DNA of 30,774 nucleotides, from positions 1-30,774 of the forward strand of contig CAZQEL010000008.1 in NCBI GenBank assembly GCA_964591795.1, in the 5' to 3' direction. How positions within the stretch are numbered: the stretch's first letter is position 1; the number at the start of each line of letters is the position of its first letter. The translations under genes were made by a program, and so were the position numbers. Below are positions 2,635 to 30,621 of the stretch, one piece after another. The DNA comes from an uncultured archaeon (GTDB taxonomy: Archaea; Iainarchaeota; Iainarchaeia; Iainarchaeales; CSSED10-239). Below the pieces are notes generated by a model, which was not told the origin of the DNA, did no database searches, and saw only the letters and a program-made list of their open reading frames with translations.

Positions 2635-3957
2635 CTACAGTTTAACTACTTCCCAGCTTCCACCTTTATTAGGACCAATTCTTTTAATTTTACCGTCCTT
2701 TTTAAGTTTTTTAAGATTATATTCTATTCCTCTTCTTGTAAGTCCTATCTTTAAGATTAATTCTTTTGTAGTTATATTTGGGTTATTTTTTATTAATCTT
2801 ATTATTTTCTCCACAGTCTTCTCCATAGTCTTCTCTGAACTAAGTGCTTGTTTTGGTCTATAAAATATAATTGTAAACCAATTCTCAGTAATATCAAATT
2901 TATATTCTAAACCATATTCTTTCATTGAATTTCTTATTCTAGTTATACCTGATCCAATCATTTCTCCTAAGTTTACTCTTTGCATAAGACCAAATAATAA
3001 AGGATTTCTTGAAAGACTTTTCTTTCCAAATTCTTCTTTAGAAATTCCTGAAACTAAGCTTCCTGGGTTTGTAATTTCTACTCTATCATAAAATATATCA
3101 ACTTGTATATGTGCATTTAAAAAATAATTTTTATGTGCAATTGCATTAATTAATGCTTCTCTTATAGATTCTTTTGGTAATTCTAATTTTTCTTTTCTTT
3201 CCTTATCTTTAATTATATAATTTGTATTTAATTTTGAACAAGTATAAATAAAAGCATTATCAAAATTAGAATACAAATCAGTATTAAATTCTTTTTTATC
3301 TAAAATTTCAGTTTTTGTAGTTCCTTGATATAATACACATACAATTGTTGCAGTATAGAAAAATTTAGTGATTTTATTACTAAATAATAAAACACCTGCA
3401 TTTTTTAAATATTTATTATCATATAATGATAGATTTGTTAATATATTGATATAATTAGTAATATTACTTAACCCTGCTTTAGATAAATAGTTTTTAAATT
3501 TAGATTTATTAAAGTCATTTTTTAAATTAAAATTAGTATTTAATTTTTCATCAAAAAAGATAAGTCCTTCTTTTTGAAAAAAGCTTCTTAATGCATCTTT
3601 TTTCATTTTTTGAGATGTTGCACCAATTCTAATATAATATTGTTCAGAATAAGCATATGGTTTTTCTTTTCCTTCAGGAACTGTAATAATAGTAATATTA
3701 TCTATTTCTTTTACATTTAAATTAATTGATGGATCTATTTTTTGCCCAATATCTATTATTTGTGAATGTATTTTGTTTGTTAAAGTGAATTTTTTAATAT
3801 TTTCATTATCATAAACCCCTATTAATATTTTTCCACCTGATGCATTAGCAAAAGCAGATATTTCCTTACCAATATCTGTATATGATTCTTTAAATTCAAG
3901 AGTATATCCTTCTCCTATTTTAATTAAATCTAATAATTCTTGTTTGTTTTCTAACAT
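2635..3957 (-). CDS. Schlafen/AlbA_2-domain DNA-binding ATPase-like protein with C-terminal winged helix
   Basis: 440 aa. AlbA_2 signature EGYTLEFKES...ISAFANASGGKILIGV. HATPase_c_4-like REALINAIAHKNY...DRVEITNPGSL. C-terminal wHTH-like ITTKELILKIGLTRRGIEYNLKKLKKDGKIKRIG. Confidence 0.7.
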   Translation of the reverse strand: MLENKQELLDLIKIGEGYTLEFKESYTDIGKEISAFANASGGKILIGVYDNENIKKFTLTNKIHSQIIDIGQKIDPSINLNVKEIDNITIITVPEGKEKPYAYSEQYYIRIGATSQKMKKDALRSFFQKEGLIFFDEKLNTNFNLKNDFNKSKFKNYLSKAGLSNITNYINILTNLSLYDNKYLKNAGVLLFSNKITKFFYTATIVCVLYQGTTKTEILDKKEFNTDLYSNFDNAFIYTCSKLNTNYIIKDKERKEKLELPKESIREALINAIAHKNYFLNAHIQVDIFYDRVEITNPGSLVSGISKEEFGKKSLSRNPLLFGLMQRVNLGEMIGSGITRIRNSMKEYGLEYKFDITENWFTIIFYRPKQALSSEKTMEKTVEKIIRLIKNNPNITTKELILKIGLTRRGIEYNLKKLKKDGKIKRIGPNKGGSWEVVKL

Positions 3958-7056: not shown

Positions 7057-7068
7057 AATACCACCTTT

Positions 7069-7088: not shown

Positions 7089-7132
7089 GTTTTTAGTTAA
7101 TATAAACTATTAGTTAGTATTTTTTACAAAAG

Positions 7133-7152
7133 ATAACTTTTTATAGAGTTAT
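7133..7152. promoter_or_regulatory. Inverted repeat ATAACT-N8-AGTTAT around a TATA-like TTTTATAG just upstream of the lrp-like gene
   Basis: Read directly from the sequence. Lies 10 nt upstream of the 7162 start. Has the same half-site as 7069-7088. Confidence 0.3.
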
Positions 7153-7161
7153 TATTACTAT

Positions 7162-8112
7162 ATGTGTATGGATAGAGTAAATAACCAAATATTACTAGAA
7201 TTAATGAAAAATTCAAGAATTACTAATAAACAACTATCAAAAAAAATAAAAGTATCACGAGAAGTTATTGCATATAGAATAAATAAATTAATTAATGAAA
7301 AAATAATTCTTAATTTCACTACTGAAATTAATTATAAAAAGCTAGGATTTATTGCTGGCTCTATTTATTTAAACATTAAAGAAGATAAACAAGATGAATT
7401 TATCGAATTTTTATTTAATTCAAATTATATATCCTGGGCAGTTGAACTTTCTGGAATATGGAATTTTGGATTTTCAATACTAGGAAAAACTGTTGAAGAA
7501 ATAGATGCAAGATTCAATGAAATGTACTTAAGATTTAAAGATGAAATTTTAAATCATAGATTTACAATACACAAACAAACAAAATATTTTTATGAAAAAT
7601 ATTTTAATGAAAGAATTGATTTAAAAATTAAAAAACATAAAAAAGAAGAAATTATTAAAATAGATAATATAGATAAACTAATTTTAAAAGAACTAGTTAA
7701 AAATTCAAGAATAGAACTTACAAAATTATCTTTAATTACAAAGATAAGCCCTCAAGCAGTAAGTAAAAGAATTAAAAGACTTGAAGATAATAATTATATT
7801 TCTAAATATTATATTTTTATAGACATTTCAAAACTAAATATCTACCAATATGAAATTTTTATAACAAACAACAACAAAACAATTAATGAAAGATTATTTA
7901 ACCATTTAGAATTTAGATTAGATATATCTTATATAGCAGAATACATTGGAGACCCTTATCTTGAATTTGGTTTAATTGTAAAAAGCCCTTATGATGTTAG
8001 AAATAAGTTGCAAGAAATTATAAGTTTATTTAAAAATATAACAATTATTCAGATAGACTTATTTCAAAAAGAATATATAGCAATAAGTCCACCTGCATGT
8101 GTTTTTGAATAA
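7162..8112 (+). CDS. Tandem (duplicated) Lrp/AsnC-family transcriptional regulator
   Basis: 316 aa with two HTH_AsnC-like segments (ILLELMKNSRITNKQLSKKIKVSREVIAYRINKLINEKII and ILKELVKNSRIELTKLSLITKISPQAVSKRIKRLEDNNYI). Each is followed by a RAM-like region. Confidence 0.75.
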   Translation: MCMDRVNNQILLELMKNSRITNKQLSKKIKVSREVIAYRINKLINEKIILNFTTEINYKKLGFIAGSIYLNIKEDKQDEFIEFLFNSNYISWAVELSGIWNFGFSILGKTVEEIDARFNEMYLRFKDEILNHRFTIHKQTKYFYEKYFNERIDLKIKKHKKEEIIKIDNIDKLILKELVKNSRIELTKLSLITKISPQAVSKRIKRLEDNNYISKYYIFIDISKLNIYQYEIFITNNNKTINERLFNHLEFRLDISYIAEYIGDPYLEFGLIVKSPYDVRNKLQEIISLFKNITIIQIDLFQKEYIAISPPACVFE

Positions 8113-8121
8113 TAATTATTA

Positions 8122-8198
8122 ATTCTCAAATCTATCCCAAGGAAAACCAGCCCATTGGTTTATTTTTTCAAAATAAAAATCAGGATAATATTTACAAT
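8122..8198. repeat. Orphan copy of the 3' end of the phosphoribosyltransferase gene (direct repeat with 9091-9167)
   Basis: 75/77 nt identical to 9091-9167. The minus strand translates to CKYYPDFYFEKINQWAGFPWDRFEN*, with no ORF upstream of it. Confidence 0.9.
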
Positions 8199-8214
8199 AA
8201 AATTAAATTAATTA

Positions 8215-8763
8215 TTAGATTGTTTTTTTATCTAATCTAATATCAAGATACATAGGTGTTGTACCTTTTTCTCTTTCTTTTAATATTTTAAACTTAAATT
8301 TTTTATAAAAATGTATAGAATCTTTTTTACGATCCTTATTTCTTTTAGCATCTAATACAAGAAATCTACAACCACATATATCATTAGATATCTTTTTAGC
8401 TGCATTATATGCTATTTCTAATAGAATTGTTCCAAAACCTTGTTTTTGATAATTATCATCTACCGCAAGTCTACCAATTTTTAATGCAGGTAATGTTTTA
8501 TAAAGTATATTTTTACGGTTAAATATTTTTTTAAGTGGGTTAGTTAAATTTAATGAATCATTAAGTAAAGTTACATATCCAACAAATTCATTTTTCTGAA
8601 ATAATAAATAAGTTATTGAAATTCCCTGTTCTTGATTTTTAAAAGCATCTTCAATTAAAAAATCTTTTAAATCTTTTTCATATGTAGTAAAATTAGAAAT
8701 TATAGTTATATCATTTTTTTCAATATGTTTAATAGTAACATATTTTAAATTTATTTTCCCCAT
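8215..8763 (-). CDS. GNAT acetyltransferase, TacT/AtaT-like toxin candidate
   Basis: 182 aa. LPALKIGRLAVDDNYQKQGFGTILLEIAYNAA resembles the GRLAVD...QG.G.G..LL core of GNAT toxins. Overlaps a small upstream ORF by 13 nt. Confidence 0.65.
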   Translation of the reverse strand: MGKINLKYVTIKHIEKNDITIISNFTTYEKDLKDFLIEDAFKNQEQGISITYLLFQKNEFVGYVTLLNDSLNLTNPLKKIFNRKNILYKTLPALKIGRLAVDDNYQKQGFGTILLEIAYNAAKKISNDICGCRFLVLDAKRNKDRKKDSIHFYKKFKFKILKEREKGTTPMYLDIRLDKKTI

Positions 8764-8918
8764 AATTGATTATTATAAAACTCTTTATTTTTTTCAGCTT
8801 GTTTAATAAATGCAACTCTTTCTTTAGATGGATGATTAGTTTCTTTTGTCCATTCTCTTATAAATCTATCAGCATCTTCGCCTCTTAAAACAGGAGTTGC
8901 TCTTATTGGTTTTGCCAT
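8751..8918 (-). CDS. Unannotated 55-aa ORF, candidate antitoxin partner of the GNAT
   Basis: Manual translation: MAKPIRATPVLRGEDADRFIREWTKETNHPSKERVAFIKQAEKNKEFYNNQLWGK*. Absent from the ORF track. Overlaps the GNAT start. Less AT-biased than the flanking intergenic DNA. Confidence 0.45.
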   Translation of the reverse strand: MAKPIRATPVLRGEDADRFIREWTKETNHPSKERVAFIKQAEKNKEFYNNQLWGK

Positions 8919-8986
8919 ATATATCACATTAAATTAATTATATATAAATATTATGTGTATATATATTTATAATGCTTTTGTAACTA

Positions 8987-9065
8987 CTTGACCAATAAAA
9001 TTATACAACAAATACTATTATTTACTAGATAACAAACCTAATATTCTCTCAAAAATCTTAAAAAA
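8987..9065. repeat. Copy b of the ~79-bp dispersed repeat (partner 4010-4088)
   Basis: See 4010-4088. Lies between the phosphoribosyltransferase stop codon and the promoter of the GNAT module. Confidence 0.75.
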
Positions 9066-9075
9066 GTTATATAGC

Positions 9076-9546
9076 TTATTTATCTTTATGATTCTCAAAT
9101 CTATCCCAAGGAAAACCAGCCCATTGATTTATCTTTTCAAAATAAAAATCAGGATAATATTTACAATTACTTTCGTTTACAAAAATAGTTAAAGTTTTTA
9201 TTTCTTTTACAGCATACTTAACTTTTAATAAATTAACTAAAAACTCTAAAGTTTTACCACTATCAGAAATATCATCAATTAAAAGAACTGTTTTTCCTTC
9301 TAAATACTCCTTTGATGGAAGATTAACAATTTGAATTTCTTTACGTTCTTTACCGTCATAAGATTTAACAGCAATGGTTAATAAATTTTTAGTATCAAAA
9401 AGTCTTGCAAAATGAATTGCAGGATATACTCCACCAACTGAAACCCCAACAATACAATCTGGAGCAAAAGTTGTTTTTTTAACATCATTAAATAATTTTA
9501 AACAACGATCATCAATTTCATTATAAGTATATTTTATTGTTTCCAT
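9076..9546 (-). CDS. Purine phosphoribosyltransferase (Gpt-like)
   Basis: 156 aa. PRPP-binding loop VLLIDDISDSGKTL. The overall layout and the C-terminal W..FPWD resemble xanthine-guanine PRTs. Confidence 0.75.
   Translation of the reverse strand: METIKYTYNEIDDRCLKLFNDVKKTTFAPDCIVGVSVGGVYPAIHFARLFDTKNLLTIAVKSYDGKERKEIQIVNLPSKEYLEGKTVLLIDDISDSGKTLEFLVNLLKVKYAVKEIKTLTIFVNESNCKYYPDFYFEKINQWAGFPWDRFENHKDK
9091..9167. repeat. Gene-resident copy of the 77-bp direct repeat (partner 8122-8198)
   Basis: Forms codons ..CKYYPDFYFEKINQWAGFPWDRFEN of the live gene, which then continues HKDK*. Confidence 0.9.
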
Positions 9547-9697
9547 ATATTATTATAAAATATTAGTATATATAAAAGTGTTCCTAAATTAAAAATCACA
9601 AAAAAGCTTTAAAAGAGAACCACATATAATATTTAAAGAATAATAATTTTACTTTTAACAGAATAAACAATTTAATTAAAAAAAGGTGAATAAAGAT

Positions 9698-9916
9698 ATG
9701 AATGAAAAAAATGAAAAAGTACAAACTATAAGAGCAATTGCATTTGCAACAGTAACAGTAGCTGCATTAATTGTTATTTTTGCAAGAGAATATGCTTGGG
9801 TTATTATATTTACAACATTAATAATTTGCTTTTTTGGAATTGCAACAACTAAAAATAACTGCTATACTGTAAAAACAGCAGTTGTTAAAGAAAAAGCAAA
9901 ACCAAAGAAAAAATAA
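9698..9916 (+). CDS. Small two-helix membrane protein
   Basis: The ATG at 9698 is preceded by AAGGTGA at an 8-nt spacing, so it is preferred over the track's GTG at 9686. Two hydrophobic segments and a Lys-rich tail. Confidence 0.4.
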   Translation: MNEKNEKVQTIRAIAFATVTVAALIVIFAREYAWVIIFTTLIICFFGIATTKNNCYTVKTAVVKEKAKPKKK

Positions 9917-9917
9917 A

Positions 9918-10646
9918 TTAAATAATAAGCTTAGATCTATTAACTCTAAGCCATTTATTCTTTTTTTTATAATCTGGAATTATTTTTTCAACAATTCCCC
10001 AGAATCTTTTTGAATGATTATGTTGTATTGTGTGAGCTAACTCGTGAACAATAACATAATCTATAATATCCTCTCTTGCAACTAAAAGAGATGTTGAAAA
10101 AATTAGTTTTTTATCATGTGAACAAGATCCAAACTTAGATGAATTGTTCTTAAGTGAAACTGATTTTAAATCTTGTTTAAAATAAAGATTATTATAATAA
10201 TCTACTTTAGATTTAATAACAAAAAGCATATCTTTTTCTAAAATTTTATTTATTAAAATAGATACTTGTTTATCTTGATCTTCTTTAGATTGATTTAAGG
10301 GCAAGGATAGGTGTATTTTACTATCAATTAGCTTCGCACTAGCTGTTTTTTTAAGCTTATACACCATATTTAATGAATATACTTTATTTAGAACACAAAT
10401 AGAGTCACCTGAGCTATAGGATTTATATAAAACAGGAGCAAATCTATCTTCATCTTTTTCAAGATACTTAATAAATTTGTTTTTCATACTTAATATTTGT
10501 TCATTTTGCCTTTTTTCTGAAAAATAAATAGGAACTCTAATATTTACATTTTTACCAATTGACATATAAGTAGATCTTCTTTTTTCAATAAATATTCTTA
10601 AAATATATTTTTTATCATTAAATATTAAAAAATCTTCTTTATACAT
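9918..10646 (-). CDS. YgjP-like (DUF45/M48-related) zinc metallohydrolase
   Basis: 242 aa. C-terminal VIVHELAHTIQHNHSKRFWGIVEKIIPDYKKKNKWL matches the HELAH...NHS..FW...P.Y...WL signature. Confidence 0.7.
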   Translation of the reverse strand: MYKEDFLIFNDKKYILRIFIEKRRSTYMSIGKNVNIRVPIYFSEKRQNEQILSMKNKFIKYLEKDEDRFAPVLYKSYSSGDSICVLNKVYSLNMVYKLKKTASAKLIDSKIHLSLPLNQSKEDQDKQVSILINKILEKDMLFVIKSKVDYYNNLYFKQDLKSVSLKNNSSKFGSCSHDKKLIFSTSLLVAREDIIDYVIVHELAHTIQHNHSKRFWGIVEKIIPDYKKKNKWLRVNRSKLII

Positions 10647-10723
10647 TCTTATACAAATCCAAAAAATAGTAATATATATTATATATAAAATGATTTAAAA
10701 AGAAAATAATAAAAAAGTTAATT

Positions 10724-11479
10724 TTAAATAGATTTATTATAATCTATAAAAAAATAATCTCCACCACAAGTAATATTTGACCAATCTCCACTTGAAGAAC
10801 AAACTGCACTATTATCATCAGCATAGAAACAATTAATTCCACCTTCTAACTTATTTTGATCTAATTTATCAAGATAGTCAATTAGATCTTGTGGAGTACT
10901 ATAATAACAATAACCATTCTTACTTATATTTTTTTTAATAGTATTATTTTCAGCTAAAAGAGATGAAGAAATATTAGAATCATCAATACCATCTTCTTTA
11001 AGTTTTGTTTTATAAGTTTCTTTATATTCAACATTTAAATCAGAAATACTTACATTTACTTTACAATAAATATATTCAATACCAAATATAGTATATTCAG
11101 TAGTTCTTGTAAATATACGGTCTTCAGTTTTAATTTCATCAATAAACACAAACCTTGAGTCTTTATTACAATCAGCAGAGTATGTTTTAAAACAATTTAT
11201 ATTATCCCCACAGTTTTTAGAATCTCCAGCATACACAATTTCTAAAACTAGTTCAGGAACATTAACATCTAAAGAAGTATTAATACCACTATTTGAATCA
11301 ACTATTAAATTTAAATCAATAGAATTATCTAAATCATCATTTTGATTAGAATTATAAAAATTAGGACTTAGGTATGCAAAAATAATTAAAACAAAAAGAA
11401 TCATAATAAGAATAATGTCATATAAAAGAAAAAACTTAGCTTTTTTTGAAAAATTTTTTAAAATTGTATTTTCATCCAT
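10724..11479 (-). CDS. Membrane-anchored, Cys-rich extracellular protein (function unknown)
   Basis: 251 aa. N-terminal transmembrane anchor FFLLYDIILIMILFVLIIFAYL followed by a Cys-containing soluble domain. Confidence 0.4.
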   Translation of the reverse strand: MDENTILKNFSKKAKFFLLYDIILIMILFVLIIFAYLSPNFYNSNQNDDLDNSIDLNLIVDSNSGINTSLDVNVPELVLEIVYAGDSKNCGDNINCFKTYSADCNKDSRFVFIDEIKTEDRIFTRTTEYTIFGIEYIYCKVNVSISDLNVEYKETYKTKLKEDGIDDSNISSSLLAENNTIKKNISKNGYCYYSTPQDLIDYLDKLDQNKLEGGINCFYADDNSAVCSSSGDWSNITCGGDYFFIDYNKSI

Positions 11480-11539
11480 GTATAATACCTATATTATTTA
11501 TATATAGATAAACACCCATAACATTTAAAAACTTATATT

Positions 11540-12580
11540 TTACATAAACTTTTTTGTATAAATTTTATTTATAGTATCTAAAATATTTTTAGCTTTTTGA
11601 AGATCTAAACTTTTAATTTTAGCTAGATCTTGTAAAGTTAAGTTCTTAATGTTATTAATTGATTTTTTAACTTTTACTAAATTTTCAATAATCTTTTCAT
11701 CTAAATTATTCATTGATGCTAAAATTCTATAACCTCTAGGAAAATCAACAGATTTTAAAGATATAAAATCAGAAAGATCTAAAATTTCAATTAATCTTTC
11801 AGTATCAGCAATTTTTCTAATACCCATTTGTTTTAAAGTTGAGATTTTATCTAAAGCTACTTCTTTTGTTTGAAGAGTATTAGAATAATCTCTTAAAATT
11901 AAAGATAATTCTTCATCAATACCAACAGTTAATTCATATAAAGTATTTGCAATATCTTGACCTTGGTTACCTAATTCAACAACCAAATCATCAACTTGCT
12001 TTTCATGTTTTATAAAATAAAGCATATTTTGTATTATTTCAATAATTTCTTCACTTAAATTACTTGAATTATTAATTTCAAGAAAAAGTATATGTTTTAG
12101 TTTTTTATCAAGTTTATTTCTAAAATCTTTTAAATTATTAATAGCATAATTAGCTTTAACCATTAACATATTAAATTCTTGAAGAACATATTTTTGATCC
12201 TTATAATAAAGAGAAATTACATTTCTTCTATGAGAAATTGCAATAACAGGAACTTTTGATTCAATTGCTGTTTGTTCAGCTGATCTATGTCTCATACCTG
12301 TTTCTTTTGAAGCTATATTTTTATTTGGCATTAAATGTTTGTTTGCACTTATAATTTTAGTTAAATCATTAGATAGAACAATAGCACCATCCATTTTTGA
12401 TAATTCAAAAAGTTTTTGTGAAGAAAAAAGAATATCAAGATCAATTCCACCTCTTAAAAGTCCTTTTAAACCATCAGAATTACCTAAAACTATAAGAGCA
12501 CCTAAATTTCCATGTAATATTTCATCAAGACCTTGTCTTAATTCTGTACCTGGAGTTACTAATGGTAATATTTTGTTCAA
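11540..12580 (-). CDS. disA: DisA-type diadenylate cyclase (DNA integrity scanning protein)
   Basis: 346 aa. VTPGTELRQGLDEIL..GALIVLG, DGAIVLS and GMRHRSAEQ are DAC-domain hallmarks. A helical linker and a C-terminal HhH-like region follow. The track start is a TTG; see the finding on the 5' end. Confidence 0.85.
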   Translation of the reverse strand: MNKILPLVTPGTELRQGLDEILHGNLGALIVLGNSDGLKGLLRGGIDLDILFSSQKLFELSKMDGAIVLSNDLTKIISANKHLMPNKNIASKETGMRHRSAEQTAIESKVPVIAISHRRNVISLYYKDQKYVLQEFNMLMVKANYAINNLKDFRNKLDKKLKHILFLEINNSSNLSEEIIEIIQNMLYFIKHEKQVDDLVVELGNQGQDIANTLYELTVGIDEELSLILRDYSNTLQTKEVALDKISTLKQMGIRKIADTERLIEILDLSDFISLKSVDFPRGYRILASMNNLDEKIIENLVKVKKSINNIKNLTLQDLAKIKSLDLQKAKNILDTINKIYTKKFM

Positions 12581-12756
12581 TATCTTCAGCTATTGAAAAT
12601 ACAAAATCAAAATCGGGTTTTTTAAAATTTTTTATTAAAATTATATTTTTCATTATTACCCTTTCATATTATATCCCAAAAGCATTATAAACTTATTGTA
12701 AAAATAATAAAAGTTTATTGATTTTTTTTAATTGGTTTCTTTTTTAATCAAATTAA

Positions 12757-16945: not shown

Positions 16946-17173
16946 TAAAATCACTTCCTATAATTTATATATATATTTTTAATATTAACTAATAAATAAT
17001 ATAAGAATGTAACGATTTAAAAATGTTAACTATAGTAGATAACAGTTAATAGTATTACACAACTATTATGTTTTAACACAATATTTATATAATCGTTTAA
17101 TTAAAACATCAAATATTATTAAAAAATAAATTGAAGATAATATTTAAATAATATATAATAAAATTGAAAAAAC

Positions 17174-17224
17174 TTAACGCCGAAAAAAGCTAAAAACACT
17201 ATTTTTTAAATATTTCGGCGTTAA
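17174..17224. repeat. 51-nt stem-loop element, left copy (12-bp stem TTAACGCCGAAA/TTTCGGCGTTAA, 27-nt loop)
   Basis: Read directly from the sequence. Ends 8 nt before the Fic ATG. The loop carries a TATA-like TTTTTTAAATA centred about 26 nt upstream of the ATG. Confidence 0.85.
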
Positions 17225-17232
17225 ATGTATTT

Positions 17233-18210
17233 ATGTATCTTACAATAAAACAAATTAATTCTAAAAAATATTACTATCTTGAAGAGAAGATAGATAATAA
17301 AACAATAAATACATTTATAGGTATAGATAAAATTAACAATATTAATAAATTTAAAGAGATATTTAAAAAACATAGATTAAATATAATATTAAAACAAACA
17401 AATAAGATTAAAAAAGAAAAAGATATTAAATATTTATCTACCTCTCAAATAATAGAGATTGAAAAACTTAAATATAATTTAAATATATTTAAAACTTATT
17501 TTAAAGAAACATATCAACAATTTAATGAAGATGAATATATTAGATATATACAAGGAAGTTCTTCTGTTGAAGGAAATTCAATTAATCTTGAAGAAACAAC
17601 CCTAATTATTAAAGAAAATTTATCAATACATGGAAAAACAATAAATGAAGTAAAAGAAATTCAAAATTTACTTGAAAGTAAAAAAATTATTGATAAACTA
17701 CCTGAATTAAATGAAAAATTAATTAAAAAAATACATTCTAAAATAATGTCTTCATTTATAACTAAAAAACCAGGTGAATATAGAGATATACCCATATTTG
17801 TAACTGGTTCTGAAGTTAAAAGAGTAAATTATAAAGAAATATCTCTAAAATTAAAAGAATTATTAAATTGGTATATTAAAAATAAAACTAAACTACATCC
17901 AATAGAACTAACTTCTATATTTCATATTTGGTTTGAAAATATACATCCTTTTATAGATGGAAATGGAAGAGTAGGTAGAGAGTTATTAAATTTAATACTA
18001 TTAAAAGAAAATTACCCACGTATAATTATTAATTTAAAAAATAGAACTAAGTATATATCTATTTTAGAAAATTCACAAATACAAGGTAACCAAAAATATG
18101 TGAATTTTTCTGAATTTACATATAATCTTTTAATTGAAAGATCAAATATTATTGAAAAAGAAATTGAAGATAATATTGAAATAATATATAATAAAATTAA
18201 AAAGACTTAA
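17233..18210 (+). CDS. Fic-domain protein (class II, with an intramolecular inhibitory motif)
   Basis: 325 aa. Catalytic HPFIDGNGRVGRE fits HPFx[D/E]GNGRxxR. The upstream SSSVEGN fits the [S/T]xxxE[G/N] inhibitory helix motif. Confidence 0.85.
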   Translation: MYLTIKQINSKKYYYLEEKIDNKTINTFIGIDKINNINKFKEIFKKHRLNIILKQTNKIKKEKDIKYLSTSQIIEIEKLKYNLNIFKTYFKETYQQFNEDEYIRYIQGSSSVEGNSINLEETTLIIKENLSIHGKTINEVKEIQNLLESKKIIDKLPELNEKLIKKIHSKIMSSFITKKPGEYRDIPIFVTGSEVKRVNYKEISLKLKELLNWYIKNKTKLHPIELTSIFHIWFENIHPFIDGNGRVGRELLNLILLKENYPRIIINLKNRTKYISILENSQIQGNQKYVNFSEFTYNLLIERSNIIEKEIEDNIEIIYNKIKKT

Positions 18211-18257
18211 CGCCGAAATATTAAAAAAATAGTATTTATATCTTTTTTCGGCGTTAA
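18207..18257. repeat. 51-nt stem-loop element, right copy, inverted relative to 17174-17224
   Basis: Identical 12-bp stem. The 27-nt loop is the reverse complement of the left loop at 23/27 positions. The Fic stop codon (18208-18210) lies inside the stem. A T6 run sits at 18243-18248. Confidence 0.85.
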
Positions 18258-18269
18258 ACTCTTTAAAAA

Positions 18270-18467: not shown

Positions 18468-18540
18468 AATCTACATCCCCCTATACTAGTTATTATTAAT
18501 GATATGATTTAAAAAGAGGTTACTTTATTAAAAATAGAAT

Positions 18541-18610
18541 TAATATCCCGGTCTTGTCCCGTAAAATTCACTTTGTTCCGGTGAAATTATATTAATAGTT
18601 CCACTTATAT
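18541..18610 (+). promoter_or_regulatory. Conserved GC-box/TATA promoter element, copy 1 (partner 29841-29910, inverted)
   Basis: Block TCCCGGTCTTGTCCCGTAAAA (18546-18566) is identical in both copies. Block TGTTCCGGT.AAATTATATTAAT.GTTCCACTTATAT (18574-18610) differs at 2 positions. Similarity continues through the AAGGTGATTA ribosome-binding site to the ATG. Confidence 0.7.
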
Positions 18611-18651
18611 GTTTTTTAATAATTAACAAAAAAACAAAAGGTGATTAAAAA

Positions 18652-19120: not shown

Positions 19121-19687
19121 TTAATAATCATGCCCAGGGCAAAGAATATCATAATCTAATTTTTTTAATTTATCTAGCGATTCATTCATTTTCTCTGGAA
19201 CTGAAGTAAAAAGATCAGTTCTTCCAACATACCCATTATAGAAAAGAGTATCTCCAGAAAACAAAATACTTCGCTTAGTATCATGTATACAAATAGAACC
19301 TTTAGTATGACCAGGTGTGTAAATAATTTTAAAGTAAGTAGGTAGTTTTAGTGTTTCAATATCTTGCAACTTAACATTAAAACTATCAGACAATGGTTTT
19401 AATAAAATAGTTTTAAATTTATCTTTATTTAAAGACAAAATAGCATCTTTTGATGCATAAAAGGTAGCATTCTTAAAAAGAGAATAATTGCCTATGTGAT
19501 CATAATGAAGATGAGTAAAAATAATAGTTTTTATTTTATCTAGAGAAATTATTTTAGAAATATCTTGAATAACCATTCGTTCGTCAGTTGGTGTTCCTGC
19601 ATCAATTAATATGTTTTCTTCTTTTAAAAAAAATATATTTGAGTCTCCTGATATTTTAAAAACACCATTATAAATTTCTTCAAGCAT
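19121..19687 (-). CDS. MBL-fold metallo-hydrolase
   Basis: 188 aa. THLHYDHIGN (HxHxDH), PGHTKGS, GDTLF and CPGHD motifs. Confidence 0.8.
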   Translation of the reverse strand: MLEEIYNGVFKISGDSNIFFLKEENILIDAGTPTDERMVIQDISKIISLDKIKTIIFTHLHYDHIGNYSLFKNATFYASKDAILSLNKDKFKTILLKPLSDSFNVKLQDIETLKLPTYFKIIYTPGHTKGSICIHDTKRSILFSGDTLFYNGYVGRTDLFTSVPEKMNESLDKLKKLDYDILCPGHDY

Positions 19688-19717: not shown

Positions 19718-20059
19718 TTATTTTAATGATTTTTTAATAGAATTAATTCCATATTTTAAAGGAACAGTATTCATATTCAAAGGTATTGACTTTAATTCTA
19801 GTTTATCTAAAAAATCTCTATATGATAATCCTGCTATTTCACTTGCTTCACTTATATTTATTTCTGTGTTTTTATATAACTCAACTGCTTTATTGAATCT
19901 ATATTCTAATACTTCTTTTTCAATTATAGATCTAATATATTCTGATTCAGTCAAATTTTTTTCTTTAGCAATAGCATAAATTATACTTGATAAAGAGTCT
20001 TTTAATCTTAATGTTTTAACATTCATTTTTTCTTTTTCAGTATATTTTAGTTTAACCAT
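19718..20059 (-). CDS. RHH-like plus UPF0175-like antitoxin candidate
   Basis: The ATG at 20059 is preceded by AAGGTGA at an 8-nt spacing, so it is preferred over the track's GTG at 20071. The UPF0175-like segment is AVELYKNTEINISEASEIAGLSYRDFLDKL. Confidence 0.55.
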   Translation of the reverse strand: MVKLKYTEKEKMNVKTLRLKDSLSSIIYAIAKEKNLTESEYIRSIIEKEVLEYRFNKAVELYKNTEINISEASEIAGLSYRDFLDKLELKSIPLNMNTVPLKYGINSIKKSLK

Positions 20060-20067
20060 ATTTAATT

Positions 20068-20577
20068 TCACCTTTTTAAATAATTATTTATAGATTTTAA
20101 ATAATCTTGAGAAAGCGATTTTTCTATAATACTAATTTTTACTAAAATTTCTTTTTTAGTTAGTTTTTTATTAAAATATAAAAATAATAAGAATTCAATT
20201 ATATTTCCAACTAATATATTATTTTGTTTACAATAATTATAAGGTCTTCCATTATCAATAAAAGTAATTAAACCTAGTTCTTGTGATAAAGCAATACAGT
20301 ATAGTTCACCAGAATCTTTACTTACTTGACTTTCTAATTCTTTTTTAATAGTAGCTGGGTCTTTCACTACTATAATTCCTTCTTTTTTTAATTTATAATA
20401 TAGTTTAATATCATTTGGGGTAAATAATTTAAACTTTAAAGATTCTGCAAACGTAATTTCTAATTCAACTTTAGAAGGAACATATAAATAATTATAATAT
20501 TCTAAAAAAATATCTAGTAAATCAACTTTAACTAAATGTATCCAAAAGGATGCATCAACAATAGCAATCTTTACCAT
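20068..20577 (-). CDS. PIN-like (DUF3368-type) nuclease toxin candidate
   Basis: 169 aa. N-terminal IAIVDASFWIHL is typical of the first acidic strand of PIN-like proteins. Adjacent to the UPF0175-like gene. Confidence 0.5.
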   Translation of the reverse strand: MVKIAIVDASFWIHLVKVDLLDIFLEYYNYLYVPSKVELEITFAESLKFKLFTPNDIKLYYKLKKEGIIVVKDPATIKKELESQVSKDSGELYCIALSQELGLITFIDNGRPYNYCKQNNILVGNIIEFLLFLYFNKKLTKKEILVKISIIEKSLSQDYLKSINNYLKR

Positions 20578-20608
20578 ATATAAATTATATTACGAAATAT
20601 TTAAAAAT

Positions 20609-20625
20609 GTATTACATTGTAATAC
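20609..20625. promoter_or_regulatory. Palindrome GTATTACA-T-TGTAATAC upstream of the PIN-like operon
   Basis: Perfect 8-1-8 inverted repeat, 32 nt upstream of the 20577 start. Confidence 0.35.
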
Positions 20626-20695
20626 AAAATAATTAAAAAAATTAATATTATTAAAAATAAAATTTAAAGAAATTATAATAAAATTATAACTTCAT

Positions 20696-20750
20696 TTAAT
20701 GAGTAAACCAGAAATTATATATTTTTTTACCTTCTTTTTCTTCAATTGAA
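20696..20750. repeat. Orphan copy of the 3' end of gltX (direct repeat with 22266-22320)
   Basis: 54/55 nt identical. The minus strand reads SIEEKEGKKIYNFWFTH*, against SIEEKEGKKTYNFWFTH* in the live gene. Confidence 0.9.
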
Positions 20751-20861
20751 AATAGAAAAGGAACAAGTGATTATTTAACAATTAATTACGATAGCGATGC
20801 TGAGTTAGATTTTAAATTAAAGATAATTAAAAACGGAGAAGTTGTTGCTTATAACAACTAA
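20751..20861 (+). pseudogene. Orphan 3' fragment of a plus-strand gene
   Basis: Open frame ..TSDYLTINYDSDAELDFKLKIIKNGEVVAYNN* with no start codon. It begins abruptly at the repeat boundary. Confidence 0.3.
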
Positions 20862-20874
20862 CTCTTTCTTTTTT

Positions 20875-22131
20875 TTATTTAATATTAAAATCTCTCCAAA
20901 TCAGATAATATTTTAAAATATTAATATTTTCCTTTTTTGAATCAAAATCAATTTTTGAATTTTCTTTAACAATTAAATAATTTTTATTTAATTCTAATTT
21001 TTGTACAGCTTTTAATTTAAAATTTTTAATTTCCTTATAAGTAATTTGATTTTTATATTTTACTTCAACACCTATCTTTTTAGAAGTAATTTGGTCATAA
21101 CTAATAAAATCAATCTCATTTACTCCTCTATTATTCCAAAAATATTCTGCATTTAACTGAAAAGCAACATCTGCTTCAATAAATTTACTTTCATTAGGAT
21201 TATTAGTTACAAAAGAAATTAATGTAGTACAATATGGATAAAACTTTTTTGAACTTTTTTCTACCTTTCTTGCATTATTTGAAAAATTATACACTTTTCT
21301 GATTAATCCACTATTTACTAAATAATCTATATATTTTGAAATCTTATTTCTATCTGTTCCAAAATCCTTAGCTAAATCATTATAATTTATTATTTGACCA
21401 GGATCTTTTAAAATAACTTTTAAAATACTTAATAAAATATCAATATCAACATCTAATATATATTTTTCTGAATCTTCAAATATTATTTTTTTAATTATTG
21501 TGGTAACATAATCTTTAGATTCAATTGAAGAGTTTATTGCTAATTGAGGATATTGTCTTTTTAAATAGATTTTATACTGTTCAATAAATGCATCATCATA
21601 TACAGCTTTTAATAAATTTTCATTATTTGAAAAAACTAAATATTCCTTAAAACTTAATTGTGGCACAAAATATTCAAAAATTCTTCCTGCAAGACTTTCT
21701 TTTTTACTAACTCTTAATGTAGACCCACTTACAATCAATTTAATATTTGGATAATTATCATATATTATTTTCACTTTTTCTTGCCAGTTATATATTTTTT
21801 GTATTTCATCAAAAAAGAAATAAAGTTTTCCAGAATCAATAGATTTACCTCTAATAATTTCATATTCTTTTAATAATTTAAAAATATCTTCAGTAAAATC
21901 ATCATATGAAAAATAAAATATATCTTTTACATTTATTTTATTATTAATTAAATAATTAATTAATTGTTTAATTAAAACAGATTTCCCAACTCTTCTAGAA
22001 CCTTCAATAGATAAAATTAACTTATTAGATAATATATTTTTTTCTAGAATATAATAAACATCTCTTTTTATTGGGTAATCAATAAGATTACCTTTCCAAT
22101 GTTTATTTTGAAAATAAATTATTTCTTGCAT
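20875..22131 (-). CDS. AAA ATPase of the AAA_14/DUF4143 type
   Basis: Walker A GSRRVGKSVL and Walker B-like LYFFFDEIQ. A start at 22131 (MQEIIYFQNKHW) is preferred because TTTATAAA lies about 24 nt upstream, consistent with a leaderless transcript. Confidence 0.7.
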   Translation of the reverse strand: MQEIIYFQNKHWKGNLIDYPIKRDVYYILEKNILSNKLILSIEGSRRVGKSVLIKQLINYLINNKINVKDIFYFSYDDFTEDIFKLLKEYEIIRGKSIDSGKLYFFFDEIQKIYNWQEKVKIIYDNYPNIKLIVSGSTLRVSKKESLAGRIFEYFVPQLSFKEYLVFSNNENLLKAVYDDAFIEQYKIYLKRQYPQLAINSSIESKDYVTTIIKKIIFEDSEKYILDVDIDILLSILKVILKDPGQIINYNDLAKDFGTDRNKISKYIDYLVNSGLIRKVYNFSNNARKVEKSSKKFYPYCTTLISFVTNNPNESKFIEADVAFQLNAEYFWNNRGVNEIDFISYDQITSKKIGVEVKYKNQITYKEIKNFKLKAVQKLELNKNYLIVKENSKIDFDSKKENINILKYYLIWRDFNIK

Positions 22132-22265
22132 ATACAAATAAGATACAAAACATTTATAAATAGCAATCATATTTGTAACAAATATGCATAAATAATTAAA
22201 TTTTGTGCCAAATTTGTTGTTTTTTTGGTAAAAAAATAATTCTATAATCCAAATTTATATGTTTA

Positions 22266-22320
22266 TTAATGAGTAAACCAGAAATTATATGTTTTTTTAC
22301 CTTCTTTTTCTTCAATTGAA
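22266..22320. repeat. Gene-resident copy of the 55-bp direct repeat (partner 20696-20750)
   Basis: Starts exactly at the gltX stop codon and covers the last 17 codons. Confidence 0.9.
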
Positions 22321-23960
22321 TCAAGTCTACAAAAACCAAATCTCTCAAACTGAATAATATCTCCAATATTTAATTGTTCAATATTCTTTTCTGCCTTTCC
22401 TTTGAAAAGATCATGTTCAGGAGTAAACACAGTAGCATCTATTAATTGAAAATCATCGTTTGGTAGAAAATGAATTATTTTTTTATTATTATTTGGAGTT
22501 TCTTTAAAGTTAATATATTCTTGAGAATCAAAAACATATTCTGAATCTTTAACCTTAAAATTAATGTTATCCATTAAACGAATAAGATTACCATCCTTAA
22601 AAGACTCAACATCTTCTTTTTCAAGAAAATAACTACCGTTAGACACAAAATTTCTATCTCCTAGTTTAAACATAGGATGTATTGATAATGAATAATGTCT
22701 ATTAATATCATTTACAACTGATATTTTTACAGGTTCTTTAATAAAGAAAAATCTTTTAGCAGTATCATTTAATATTCTTTTATTATATTTAATTATTGTA
22801 TCCCATGTAATTACAGCACCAGATGACTTAGTAATTCCAGATTCAACAACCATTTGCATAATTGCTTCTTTTGTAAACCCACGTCTTTTTAATGCTCTCA
22901 AAGTAGGAAGACTAGGATCATCCCAACCAATAAGTTCACCAGAATTAACTTTTTCGCGAATTTCTCTTCCTGATGACGCCATACCTTCTAAATTAAATCT
23001 TGAAAACTCATATGTAAAAGTATCATAAAGACCTAGTAATTTTCTAATATAATGATGAAGTTCACTTGCCATTTCAAACTCTAATGTTCTTAATCTATGA
23101 GTAGTATTAAGATATCCATCTAAAAATGCATTTTGAAAATCATAGGTAGGATAAACTCTATATTTAGATCCAATCCTTGGATGTTCAGCATCAATCACTC
23201 TAAAGATAGTAGGATCTCTCATTCTTGAATTTTTATGTTTTAAATCAACTTTAAGTCTAAGTGAGGCTTTTCCTTCCTCATAATTTTTCATTTCATTCCA
23301 TTTAATTAAATTTTCTTCTGGAGAATTATCTCTACAAGAACAAGCTTCTTTTTTCATTCTATTTTCACTCATTTGTTCAGGCTTACAAAAACACATATAT
23401 GCCTGTGATTTAAGGATAAGTTTTTCTGCTTCTTCATGCATTTTACCTATATAATCAACAGCATATAAGACTTTGTCTATTTTTACACCTAACCAATCAA
23501 GATCCTCTAACATTATCTTATAAAACTCAGGTTTTACAAGTCTTGGGTTTGTATCTTCAAATCTTAAATAGAATTTACCATTATATTGTTTTGCTAAAAG
23601 ATAATTAAGTAAAATTGCTTTAGAGTGACCAATATGAAAATATTTTTCAGGGCCTGGTGGAAAACAAGTAACAACCTTGTCACCTTCTTTAATATTTAAA
23701 AAAGCAAAAATGTTTCTTTCTTCTTTTTCTTTCTTATCAAAAAAGCTTGGATTTATTTTTTTAACCATTTCTTGTTGTTTTTCTAAAGATAAAGCATTAA
23801 TTTCTTCAATTAAAGGAATAAGTTCTAAAGATAATTCCTTTGTTTTAGTTCTATATTCAGGAAAATCTTTTAAAACACCACCTAAAATAAATTTAAGTTC
23901 TGCTTTTCCTTTATACTTAACTGCATTTTCTAATATTATTTTTTTAAAAGTATCTTGCAT
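22266..23960 (-). CDS. gltX: Glutamyl-tRNA synthetase, archaeal/eukaryal type
   Basis: 564 aa. Class I HIGH motif FHIGHSKA. Long catalytic core plus a C-terminal beta-barrel-type region. The N-terminal ILENAVKYKGKA..LGGVLK segment resembles a GatB/YqeY-like appended domain. Confidence 0.9.
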   Translation of the reverse strand: MQDTFKKIILENAVKYKGKAELKFILGGVLKDFPEYRTKTKELSLELIPLIEEINALSLEKQQEMVKKINPSFFDKKEKEERNIFAFLNIKEGDKVVTCFPPGPEKYFHIGHSKAILLNYLLAKQYNGKFYLRFEDTNPRLVKPEFYKIMLEDLDWLGVKIDKVLYAVDYIGKMHEEAEKLILKSQAYMCFCKPEQMSENRMKKEACSCRDNSPEENLIKWNEMKNYEEGKASLRLKVDLKHKNSRMRDPTIFRVIDAEHPRIGSKYRVYPTYDFQNAFLDGYLNTTHRLRTLEFEMASELHHYIRKLLGLYDTFTYEFSRFNLEGMASSGREIREKVNSGELIGWDDPSLPTLRALKRRGFTKEAIMQMVVESGITKSSGAVITWDTIIKYNKRILNDTAKRFFFIKEPVKISVVNDINRHYSLSIHPMFKLGDRNFVSNGSYFLEKEDVESFKDGNLIRLMDNINFKVKDSEYVFDSQEYINFKETPNNNKKIIHFLPNDDFQLIDATVFTPEHDLFKGKAEKNIEQLNIGDIIQFERFGFCRLDSIEEKEGKKTYNFWFTH

Positions 23961-29803: not shown

Positions 29804-29840
29804 ATAATCACCTTTAATTTTTTTTATTAATTATAAAAAT

Positions 29841-29910
29841 ATATAAGTGGAACCATTAATATAATTTAACCGGAACAGGTCTTGTTTTACGGGACAAGAC
29901 CGGGAAATCA
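29841..29910 (-). promoter_or_regulatory. Conserved GC-box/TATA promoter element, copy 2 (partner 18541-18610)
   Basis: The reverse complement aligns over 70 nt with copy 1 without gaps. It has the same orientation and distance relative to its downstream gene. Confidence 0.7.
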
Positions 29911-29916
29911 AAACTA

Positions 29917-30621
29917 TTAATCTTTAATTTTTAAAATATAAGTTAGTCCTGATTTTTTTCTTTCAATATAACCTTTTGATTCCAAAGATGATATGTTTCT
30001 TGAAAGACTTGATTTTGGAATATTTAATATTTTTAAAAGTTTATTTTGAGAAACTGTTTTTTCTTTAATTAAAATGTTTAAGATGTTCTTTTGTCTTTGA
30101 TTTATATTTTTATAAGTTAAATTAGGTTTATCTTTTTGTTTTGGTTTTTTTAGAAATAACCAAAAATAAATACTCACTAATAATAATAATAAAATCCCAC
30201 TAAAATATAACCAAAAATTAAAACTAGTATTTGTAGTTTGATCTTTAAAATAGTTTATTTTTATATTTAAAGATTCATTTATTCCAAACCCAGTTACTGT
30301 AATTCGATCATTGTTTGAGCTTATTAGATATTTGTTACTTGTAATAATTGCGTTTATTTTATAATCCTTAGGAAGTACCACTGAAAAATAAAACTTATTA
30401 AAAACAGGATAATTAATATCAAAAGCCCAATATTGACTATTTTTAGTTGTATATGCATAAGTATCATTAGGTAGTAAAACAGAAGGATAATCTGTAACTC
30501 CAGAAACTGTAACTAATCCATCATTATCAATAGAAAAAGATAAATCTGCAACTTCTGAATGAATATTAGGAAGAATTAGAATAAATATTAACAGTATAAA
30601 AATATAATTCTTAAAGTTCAT
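29917..30621 (-). CDS. Membrane-tethered winged-helix transcriptional regulator with an extracytoplasmic N-terminal domain
   Basis: 234 aa. Signal/anchor (YIFILLIFILILP), a beta-rich domain of ~115 aa, a transmembrane helix FWLYFSGILLLLLVSIYFWLFL, then KKPKQKDK and a MarR/ArsR-like wHTH QRQKNILNILIKEKTVSQNKLLKILNIPKSSLSRNISSLESKGYIERKK. Confidence 0.6.
   Translation of the reverse strand: MNFKNYIFILLIFILILPNIHSEVADLSFSIDNDGLVTVSGVTDYPSVLLPNDTYAYTTKNSQYWAFDINYPVFNKFYFSVVLPKDYKINAIITSNKYLISSNNDRITVTGFGINESLNIKINYFKDQTTNTSFNFWLYFSGILLLLLVSIYFWLFLKKPKQKDKPNLTYKNINQRQKNILNILIKEKTVSQNKLLKILNIPKSSLSRNISSLESKGYIERKKSGLTYILKIKD

Follow-up and report, generated by a model that had tools for sequence, protein, structure and literature searches.

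The DNA analyzed here (30,774 nt, about 22% G+C; hereafter the window, i.e., the whole 30.8-kb stretch) covers positions 1 to 30,774 of contig CAZQEL010000008.1 from an uncultured archaeon of the order Iainarchaeales. We were concerned with the segment from 20696 to 22320, in which a gene for an AAA ATPase with a DUF4143 domain is bracketed by two copies of the 3' end of gltX, the gene encoding glutamyl-tRNA synthetase (GluRS). The open reading frame (ORF) identified as gltX contains both the tRNA-synt_1c catalytic domain and the anticodon-binding domains, and its product has 964 homologues with the source annotation GluRS or glutamyl-tRNA synthetase. By GluRS, the closest species-level genomes are those of Ca. 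Forterrea multitransposorum, Ca. Iainarchaeum and other Diapherotrites; the genomes and contigs used for comparison are referred to below by numbers with the prefix L. Coordinates of the features are collected in Table 1.

The two copies of the gltX end, at 20696-20750 and 22266-22320, are direct repeats identical at 54 of 55 positions, and the similarity ends sharply on both sides. The pair has an E value of about 1e-25; when the window was shuffled 40 times with its dinucleotides preserved, no direct repeat scored above 47 bits. The right copy is made up of the TAA stop codon and the final 17 codons (SIEEKEGKKTYNFWFTH, then stop) of the 564-aa ORF. The left copy translates as SIEEKEGKKIYNFWFTH and stop, i.e., the same peptide except for Ile in place of Thr, the single mismatch on the gltX sense strand being T on the left and C on the right (ATA versus ACA). 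Upstream of the left copy we found no gltX homology beyond the repeat residues, and the left copy is therefore not the end of a longer gltX pseudogene. An earlier note on this DNA, made from the letters alone, had proposed a 54/55 repeat with an orphaned left copy, and had named a longer gltX pseudogene as the alternative. The repeat and the orphan are both real, with sharp edges, and the alternative falls away, leaving the left copy as a short junction repeat.

The ATPase gene between the copies is intact. Its product matched the Pfam families AAA_14 (3.3e-27; 95.5 bits, cut-off 27), DUF4143 (5.6e-15; 55.9 bits, cut-off 28.1) and HTH_24 (3.4e-4), and the PADLOC model for PDC-S01 (PDLC04787) at 1.5e-42 over residues 33-419, a full-length match. 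All of the columns that are invariant among 26 homologues are kept (G44, R46, R47, G49, K50, D108, E109, E339, D341, E356 and K358), and the motifs are a Walker A sequence of the form GxRRxGK, a Walker B DE, and the D...ExK of the PD-(D/E)xK fold. DUF4143/COG1373 has been placed in the PD-(D/E)xK superfamily (PMC3424549), and PDC-S01 has been described as an ATPase fused to a PD-(D/E)xK domain, a system that occurs very commonly, shows relative enrichment in archaea and still awaits validation (PMC12988326). The window protein has this architecture (COG1373, AAA_14 + DUF4143; PMC12988326, PMC3424549), with no architectural difference. For this ATPase, as for PDC-S01 in general, defense is a label derived from genomic embedding and denotes a candidate function. 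A sequence search of the PDB gave only marginal matches to Walker ATPases, with no solved structure of a close relative.

A mechanical ORF call extends the ATPase to an ATG at 22170 (431 aa), and the JGI gene calls give 418 aa. We placed the start at 22131 because the homologues and the TATA box both fit the 418-aa form. The TATA box (TTTATAAA, 22153-22160), which precedes the ATG at 22131 by about 22 nt, is kept in all relatives, which bears out the view of the earlier note that the gene has a TATA-type promoter of its own. This conserved box supports an independent transcript, which would probably be leaderless, and the oligo-T tract downstream of gltX may act as a terminator. From about 22224 onward the region is homologous to the DNA upstream of the ATPase in L013, L008, L011 and L100.

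Adjoining the left copy is a remnant of a gene for a Liv-type substrate-binding protein (Peripla_BP_6), convergent with the ATPase gene. By tblastn its 36 codons are 66.7% identical in amino acid sequence to L013 and 63.8% to L019, and its DNA is 77% identical to positions 3396-3531 of L013. The homologous gene is full length in L019 (381 aa; Peripla_BP_6, 1.5e-49) and partial in L013, the fragment corresponding to its C terminus. Thus, what had been noted as a start-less 3' fragment is real, and consists of the terminal 36 codons of a gene that relatives possess at full length. Homology to the binding-protein gene starts exactly at 20751, i.e., at the first nucleotide after the orphan gltX copy. 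At this junction a microhomology of about 2 nt (TT) can be read by eye, which is uninformative in DNA of 78% A+T. We did not detect a near-identical, full-length relative of the fragment that could represent its donor, the 36-aa query being too short and a padded 52-aa query matching no protein-database words.

Comparison with the nearest relative, L005 (GluRS 88% identical), showed that the insert is polymorphic. In L005, gltX is followed by 97 nt, by a DUF3368/UPF0175 pair and then by a gene for a metallo-beta-lactamase-fold protein (MBL), so that this genome represents an empty site. The orphan copy in the window, the 118-nt spacer behind it, the DUF3368/UPF0175 pair and MBL are colinear with this arrangement, the 97-nt spacer of L005 aligning with the DNA downstream of the orphan copy; the two proteins of the pair are 82% and 87% identical to those of L005. 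Comparing related gltX loci was a check proposed in the earlier note, and L005 indeed lacks the ATPase insert. All adjacencies in the region have a counterpart in one relative or another, with the sole exception of the junction at 20750/20751.

Table 1. Features of the gltX-MBL region of the window, in the order in which they follow gltX
Feature	Coordinates	Strand	Basis or remark
gltX, intact archaeal-type glutamyl-tRNA synthetase, 564 aa; conserved hotspot anchor	22266..23960	-	Pfam tRNA-synt_1c 2.1e-77 and both C-terminal domains
Right (functional) repeat copy	22266..22320	-	gltX stop, last 17 codons and 1 nt; 47/55 to L005 gltX end
gltX-ATPase intergenic region	22132..22265	-	oligo-T tract 22230-22236 after gltX; ATPase promoter region
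AAA_14 ATPase - winged helix-turn-helix (HTH) - DUF4143 (PD-(D/E)xK), 418 aa, intact; PADLOC PDC-S01 candidate defense gene	20875..22131	-	Pfam, PADLOC, motifs
13-nt spacer from ATPase stop to stop of convergent fragment	20862..20874		3' flank of binding-protein gene; homologous to L013 3396-3418
Peripla_BP_6 (Liv-type substrate-binding protein) gene, 3' remnant, 36 codons and stop	20751..20861	+	tblastn and DNA matches to L013, L019
Sole novel (illegitimate) junction	20750..20751		binding-protein gene position -111 joined to gltX position -55
Left (orphan) repeat copy	20696..20750	-	contiguous with ancestral gltX downstream region; 48/55 to L005 gltX end
Ancestral gltX-DUF3368 intergenic region, including promoter region of toxin-antitoxin-like pair	20578..20695	-	aligns with 97-nt spacer of L005
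DUF3368 (PIN-like, 169 aa) and UPF0175 (117 aa), PDC-S70-like; second hotspot cargo module	19718..20577	-	Pfam, PADLOC PDC-S70
MBL gene, far border of hotspot	19121..19687	-	Pfam Lactamase_B 4.1e-26

The arrangement is not peculiar to one assembly. Contigs from two other samples, L003 (JGI 3300039186) and L004 (JGI 3300039187), span both copies at 99.8-99.97% identity to the window, and across 19845-23216, an interval that takes in gltX, the ATPase, the orphan copy, DUF3368/UPF0175 and MBL, they show no difference from it at all. Two MEGAHIT contigs of ERZ27316756 (L001 and L002) are identical to the window where they overlap it, and break at 20955 and 20634. These breaks lie in extremely A+T-rich DNA and coincide with neither the repeat nor the junction, and we have drawn no conclusion from them about strain heterogeneity. 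The earlier note had named an assembly artefact, together with the lack of any polymorphism for the insert in related genomes, as a finding that would overturn its proposal; the layout recurs in two JGI assemblies made independently.

The space downstream of gltX is a hotspot in this group. MBL is the direct downstream neighbor of gltX in most related genomes, and 12 species-level genomes (L016, L017, L021-L029, L031, L035) have the two side by side, separated by about 12-160 nt. In other lineages the cargo between or after these two genes varies: the ATPase in L008-L012; the ATPase, a second copy of the gltX end, a 472-aa ORF and the binding-protein gene in L013; an AbiE pair, the binding-protein gene and an HTH regulator in L019; a radical-SAM gene and an HTH regulator in L014; a different DUF4143 ATPase (38% identity) in L030; a Fic gene in L020; and the DUF3368/UPF0175 toxin-antitoxin (TA) pair in L005. 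It is this variety that identifies the hotspot. Contig L019 (JALNZW010000017.1) is labelled "Patescibacteria group bacterium"; it carries an archaeal GluRS 77% identical to that of the window, with the same synteny, and is probably a mis-binned DPANN contig. In L018, a Ca. Iainarchaeum metagenome-assembled genome (MAG), a tandem repeat with a period of about 68 nt (91%; 9695-9878) begins at the gltX stop codon and fills the 300-nt gap between gltX and MBL. A scan of metagenome contigs with the GluRS protein yielded no relative, most of the relevant samples evidently being absent from the collection, and a DNA-pattern scan of metagenome contigs for the conserved gltX end returned two contigs only.

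We then considered the ages of the duplication and of the ATPase. The two copies match the L005 gltX end at 47 and 48 of 55 positions, sharing the same 6-7 differences from it, and differ from one another at one position. By this comparison the duplication is recent and was built from the lineage's own gltX sequence, because both copies share the substitutions of the lineage and an older duplication would have allowed the non-coding orphan to drift. L005 would thus retain the ancestral arrangement, rather than being a product of deletion, unless gene conversion homogenizes the copies. Over the whole gene, gltX DNA is about 87% identical to that of L005 and uniform along its length (about 86-93%, with one dip to 71% at nt 451-600), and the identity along the gene shows no mosaic pattern at the 3' end.

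The history of the ATPase differs from that of its flanks. In GluRS, the window groups with L005, whereas the ATPase-bearing L008, L011 and L013 form a separate clade (here clade III), in which the ATPase and its upstream region directly follow the gltX stop codon, with the convergent binding-protein gene downstream in L013. Between the window and clade III the ATPases are 77-79% identical in amino acid sequence, compared with 69-72% for GluRS and 53-55% for MBL; inside clade III the ATPases are 87-91% identical and GluRS 92%. Thus, the ATPase is more similar than its housekeeping flanks between the clades, but less similar than GluRS within clade III. It is absent from the closer lineages L005 and L016-L019, and relatives at 68-73% identity follow unrelated genes, i.e., a PIN toxin-antitoxin pair in L096 and an RNase H-like gene in L100. 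The closer resemblance to clade III than is seen for GluRS and MBL, together with the patchy presence, points to horizontal arrival of the ATPase in the window lineage, into the gltX-MBL hotspot. When ATPase units were compared across six contexts, the conserved part was only the gene and about 95 nt upstream of it, homology ending within the last few codons, and no terminal repeats were found.

Similar tags derived from 3' ends exist elsewhere. The L013 tag, 33 nt with 32 matches to its own gltX end, can be extended to about 50 nt, and in its 5' half it departs from the resident gltX. This tag is located past the ATPase and before the 472-aa ORF, which is inserted between the ATPase and the binding-protein gene. 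As the ATPase looks vertical within the clade, the tag-carrying module downstream of it is, from this comparison, more likely to be the newcomer in L013. In L060, a Nanoarchaeota MAG whose GluRS is 49% identical, 50-nt copies at 5058-5107 and 8555-8604 (96%), consisting of the last 45 nt of gltX plus 5 nt, stand 3.45 kb apart with two radical-SAM/SPASM genes and a 279-aa ORF between them, and the orphan adjoins the 3' end of a convergent 581-aa gene. Measured from the gene end, the boundaries of the tags are at -55 in the window, -33 to -50 in L013, and -45 to +5 in L060. In L008 the target is a tRNA-Asn gene (18-90), of which a 45-nt stretch from the anticodon loop to 5 nt past the tRNA 3' end is duplicated (51-95 and 1197-1241, 95.6%) around a Fic gene (156-1136). 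This Fic protein is 36% identical to that of the window, the 1.1-kb insert contains no integrase, and the footprint is att-like (i.e., like that of an integrase attachment site).

Within the window itself, 8122-8198 and 9091-9167 are identical at 75 of 77 positions and enclose a GNAT gene and a small ORF, the right copy ending 15 nt before the stop codon of a phosphoribosyltransferase (PRTase) gene. The orphan copy encodes 25 of 25 identical residues and then stops (FEN followed by two stops), and the working gene continues with HKDK before its stop. This layout is reproduced in L101, L102 and L103 (JGI, ENA and Logan contigs). The orphan in L103 (Logan; 707-783) is identical at 77 of 77 positions to the working copy of the window, and L101 differs at two positions of the working copy, strain differences that reflect either a recent origin or gene conversion between the copies. 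Neither the 55-nt nor the 77-nt repeat folds better than shuffles (z = +1.45 and +0.23). Look-ups of the exact PRTase and 431-aa ATPase sequences returned no record, probably because gene callers had chosen different starts.

The earlier note had treated 8122-9167 as a case of the same kind, which agrees with these data and with the tags found in L013 and L060 (gltX) and in L008 (tRNA-Asn). It had also described a third repeat derived from an ORF end, which did not survive. The repeat at 4020-4085 and 8997-9062 is real (86%, 66 nt), but both copies are intergenic and no ORF ends there. One lies upstream of a gene for a Schlafen/AlbA-type ATPase (2635..3957, minus strand) and the other upstream of the small ORF of the GNAT module, and they are possibly a shared promoter or leader. 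As to the broader suggestion of a recurrent way of inserting modules, the tags are real, polymorphic and recurrent; a special mechanism is not favored, given that the units have no conserved ends, a fragment has hitch-hiked and the boundaries differ.

Several candidate motifs were also discarded. A palindrome at the inner repeat boundary (TCAATTGA), considered as a cleavage site common to the window and L013, was dropped, since only 33 nt of the L013 tag is solid and its 5' part is A-rich and ambiguous. Two further possible recombination motifs, AATTTGGA (a short direct repeat found at either end of the ATPase unit) and CTGGTTT (common to the gltX and PRTase tags), are by estimate no more than chance would give in DNA of this base composition. 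Of 110 inverted-repeat pairs, the 25 longest include none located at 20751/22265. Pfam scans of all ORFs of at least 60 aa revealed no integrase, transposase, resolvase or IntI-like ORF in the window, in agreement with the term "recombinase-less" used previously, and the only Rfam match in the window is a tRNA-Asn.

On balance, the 55-nt repeat is probably the scar of one recent recombination that stacked two versions of the hotspot in tandem. Version B would have been gltX, promoter and DUF4143 ATPase, convergent with the binding-protein gene, and version A would have been gltX, DUF3368/UPF0175 and MBL, as kept in L005. Of the two joints, one would be homologous and colinear, and hence invisible, the versions ceasing to be homologous at the gltX stop codon. 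The other, at 20750/20751, would be illegitimate, with the terminal 111 nt of the binding-protein gene attached to gltX at position -55. As this joint falls 55 nt inside gltX, the last 55 nt would be present twice, once as the end of the working gene and once as an orphan tag in front of the older module. This accounts for both edges of the repeat, one lying at the stop codon because homology between the versions ends there and the other being the illegitimate breakpoint; the piece of binding-protein gene in the inserted DNA is likewise what an imprecise chromosomal breakpoint should leave. The pathway that we infer would belong to homology-facilitated illegitimate recombination (HFIR), or to unequal crossing-over after exchange of DNA between close strains, and would involve no recombinase encoded by an element. 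Because gltX and the promoters of both cargoes stay intact, survival of the event would be favored.

The DNA between the copies need not be what moved. An ATPase block could have entered a genome with the order gltX-TA-MBL, or a TA block carrying the 55-nt gltX tag could have entered a genome with the order gltX-ATPase-binding-protein gene. The phyletic pattern favors the ATPase as the more recent arrival in the window lineage.

Several points weigh against stacking by recombination. The structure is symmetric, and these data do not decide which module is the newcomer. Related loci of the version B kind occur in L008, L011 and L013; a conspecific contig of version B, with a window-type gltX, the ATPase and a full-length binding-protein gene, was not found. 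The near-identity of the copies requires either a conspecific partner or, with a divergent ATPase donor, one of two things: a homologous joint within the terminal 24-27 nt of gltX, a stretch that hardly varies between the window lineage and clade III although the DNA just upstream does, or an event of a replication or sister-chromosome type. The 2-nt microhomology carries no weight in DNA of this composition. The narrow range of tag lengths (45-77 nt in five cases), with one tag derived from the anticodon loop of tRNA-Asn, would be an att-like pattern; the range may reflect loss of longer repeats by recombination and the escape of shorter ones from detection, for which at least 30 nt is needed. 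Finally, recombination in these uncultured organisms is known from sequence alone, homologous recombination having been inferred in Ca. Forterrea multitransposorum, the closest named relative (PMC5905446).

The att-like character of the tags raises the question of site-specific integration, with the 55-nt copies as attL and attR and a tyrosine integrase, acting in trans or since deleted, placing an ATPase cassette into the 3' end of gltX. Such enzymes classically leave direct repeats that contain the target's 3' end and make the gene whole again, and here the right copy of the 54/55 pair completes gltX. Tags of 45-77 nt at gltX (window, L013 and L060), PRTase and tRNA-Asn are in the usual att range, the tag in L008, which encloses a lone Fic gene, begins in the anticodon loop, where integrases classically act, the copies are as near-identical as an attP matched to its host would be, and relatives of the ATPase stand directly behind the stop codons of three unrelated genes. 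We nevertheless hold integration to be unlikely. Neither the 1.57-kb insert nor the window has an integrase, one end of the supposed element would be a 111-nt piece of a chromosomal binding-protein gene, the junction at this fragment has no similarity to a gltX core, and the ends of the ATPase unit are not conserved between contexts. Moreover, gltX, ATPase and MBL occur in this order without a second copy in L008 and L011, the tag in L013 lies beyond a vertical-looking ATPase and has a foreign-looking 5' half, the boundaries of the tags vary from case to case, and viral contigs carried neither an ATPase relative nor the gltX-end pattern. The empty site is known only from the different lineage L005. 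A dedicated system in DPANN (Iainarchaeia and Nanoarchaeota), i.e., recombination acting in trans to insert defense units of promoter and gene behind the stops of gltX, the PRTase gene and tRNA-Asn while duplicating about 45-77 nt, strikes us as rather improbable, the tags having no hairpin potential. Its units would lack a recombinase and terminal repeats, and it would resemble integrons or satellites, with gene ends in the place of attC.

If the variable tag lengths suit repair better than an enzyme-defined process, they might also result from replication. In template switching (resembling microhomology-mediated break-induced replication, MMBIR, or fork stalling and template switching, FoSTeS), or where captured foreign DNA is accompanied by a long, staggered duplication of the target, a nascent strand ending in the conserved last 24-27 nt of gltX would switch to a foreign gltX-ATPase template, copy 1.5 kb and return 55 nt upstream. 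Both copies would then be of the recipient type, one position in 55 apart, with no need for a conspecific donor, and the near-identity to clade III over those last 24-27 nt would explain the boundary at the stop codon. This process calls for two switches in place of one illegitimate joint, has not been demonstrated in archaea of this group and leaves unexplained why the 5' half of the L013 orphan differs from the resident gltX, and the same data fit stacking by recombination equally well; we regard it as quite improbable. There may, on the other hand, have been no insertion at all, if gltX, ATPase, tag and TA pair were ancestral to the window and L005, and L005 had deleted the ATPase between the 55-nt repeats. 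Direct repeats of this length can mediate a precise deletion, of which the structure of L005 would be the expected product, the ATPase lies behind gltX in four lineages, and strain differences inside the 77-nt PRTase copies hint at possible gene conversion. However, the copies are 1/55 apart and each differs from L005 by 7-8/55 at the same positions, so that, absent gene conversion, the orphan should have drifted. The ATPase is also missing from all other closer lineages and less diverged from clade III than GluRS is, and the origin of the duplication would be left unexplained, all of which makes an ancestral insert very improbable. We give practically no credence to an assembly artefact or strain chimera. 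The repeat lengths, 55 and 77, are both SPAdes k-mer sizes and common de Bruijn k values, and the MEGAHIT contigs break on either side of the left copy. However, two more assemblies from different samples span both copies with zero differences, the mismatch between the copies means that they are no exact k-mer overlap, JGI, ENA and Logan contigs also show the layout of 8122-9167, and each segment has a homologous counterpart in relatives.

Stacking by recombination has its closest counterpart in HFIR, first described, as summarized in PMC5361080 and PMC3240628, in Acinetobacter, Pseudomonas stutzeri and Streptococcus pneumoniae. On our reading, one conserved anchor (the gltX or MBL side) would here, as there, be combined with one illegitimate joint of minimal microhomology, and non-homologous foreign cargo would be gained beside the anchor with no element-encoded recombinase. 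The classical cases are experimental bacterial transformations that usually delete recipient DNA, whereas here 55 nt are duplicated, the joint would lie upstream of the end of homology, and the pathway is deduced for an uncultured DPANN archaeon from sequence only. A second likeness is to Rhs loci, orphan modules of contact-dependent inhibition (CDI) systems and the effector-immunity arrays of type VI secretion (T6SS) in V. cholerae, in which new cargo arrives beside a conserved upstream gene, the old 3' end is kept as an orphan and the order of the stacked modules records their history. A scheme in which the upstream anchor stays conserved, and older 3' ends and cargo are pushed downstream of it, has been put forward for the T6SS arrays of V. 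cholerae and for Rhs loci, in the latter as "C-terminal displacement" (PMC5361080, and Jackson et al. 2009 as cited there). In those systems the displaced parts are the variable toxin tip and immunity orphans, whereas at the present locus the end of a housekeeping synthetase is duplicated rather than replaced, and the stacked genes are unrelated single-gene defense or TA-type modules. As expected of HFIR or displacement, gltX stands immediately before the ATPase in L008-L013 and before the TA pair in L005, and the old 3' end and old downstream module remain colinear behind the new cargo.

The resemblance to other systems is less complete. Tyrosine-integrase islands share the repeats that hold the target 3' end and regenerate an intact gene, a typical length of about 50 nt and defense cargo; the present locus differs in having no integrase, unconserved ends and a fragment of a chromosomal neighbor inside, and in that the same gene occurs elsewhere without a repeat. 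Like chromosomal integron arrays, the locus has rows of small single-gene modules, often of TA or GNAT type, with the newer nearer to a fixed point, but it lacks IntI, its repeats are gene 3' ends without hairpin potential, and the orientations are mixed. Unlike a transposon or insertion sequence, it has no transposase or terminal inverted repeats, and the duplication is 55 nt here and of other lengths elsewhere.

Other parts of the window also bear signs of rearrangement. Its Fic gene (17233..18210, plus strand) stands between 146-nt direct repeats (17080-17225 and 18113-18258, 84%), each made up of the last 98 nt of Fic and a hairpin, TTAACGCCGAAA-N23-TTTCGGCGTTAA, whose stem is 12 bp long. 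The window has two occurrences of this hairpin pattern, where chance would give 0. In L020, a Fic gene 72% identical and directly downstream of gltX has the same hairpin on both sides (9721-9767 and 10739-10785), and L017 has one copy (2816-2864) downstream of MBL. The repeat and hairpin could be a duplicated terminator or a cassette boundary. As a general cassette boundary, the GC-rich hairpin was rejected, since it was found only beside Fic genes, plus the one copy downstream of MBL in L017. The JGI contig L101 is 99.65% identical to the window over 3214-12585 and diverges past 12585. There (L101 1-1167) the contig carries a complete DAC (DisA-like) gene of 374 aa with a further AAA_14/DUF4143 gene ahead of it, and the DAC ORF of the window has 346 aa and a TTG start; position ~12585 looks like another strain-level rearrangement junction, possibly truncating DAC. 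At 4792-6160, gene fragments follow one another as if earlier rearrangements had left their remains there: the C-terminal end of a gene for a histidine-specific methyltransferase, part of a NUDIX gene, and the C-terminal third of another, distantly related Peripla_BP_6 gene. Finally, 18533-18616 and 29835-29918 are two-part inverted repeats (88% and 93%) 11.2 kb apart, each just upstream of an ORF (18652, plus strand; 29803, minus strand). They have no match in Rfam and may be common regulatory or leader sequences of paralogous genes.

The genomes of DPANN archaea are very small, for the most part without CRISPR and restriction systems and rich in compact single-gene defense candidates, with a reported enrichment in AbiE, SoFic and PDCs (PMC12988326). 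The window holds exactly this reported content, i.e., two AbiEii genes, a Fic gene, PDC-S01, a PDC-S70-like pair, a GNAT module and a Schlafen/AlbA ATPase. The gltX locus provides a concrete and reproducible example of how DPANN archaea may gain and shuffle their candidate defense genes. Across the whole class, the gltX-MBL housekeeping pair is a hotspot whose cargo is exchanged between lineages, and at the locus described here one event would have stacked two cargo sets, leaving a datable 55-nt tag. This does not overturn current views, and most likely represents a known class of recombination in a new setting; if the tags were instead att sites of a recombinase acting in trans, they would define a new kind of cassette system. 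Because tags derived from 3' ends are easily searched for, they could be used to find hotspots, to order acquisitions and to measure recombination in uncultured archaea.

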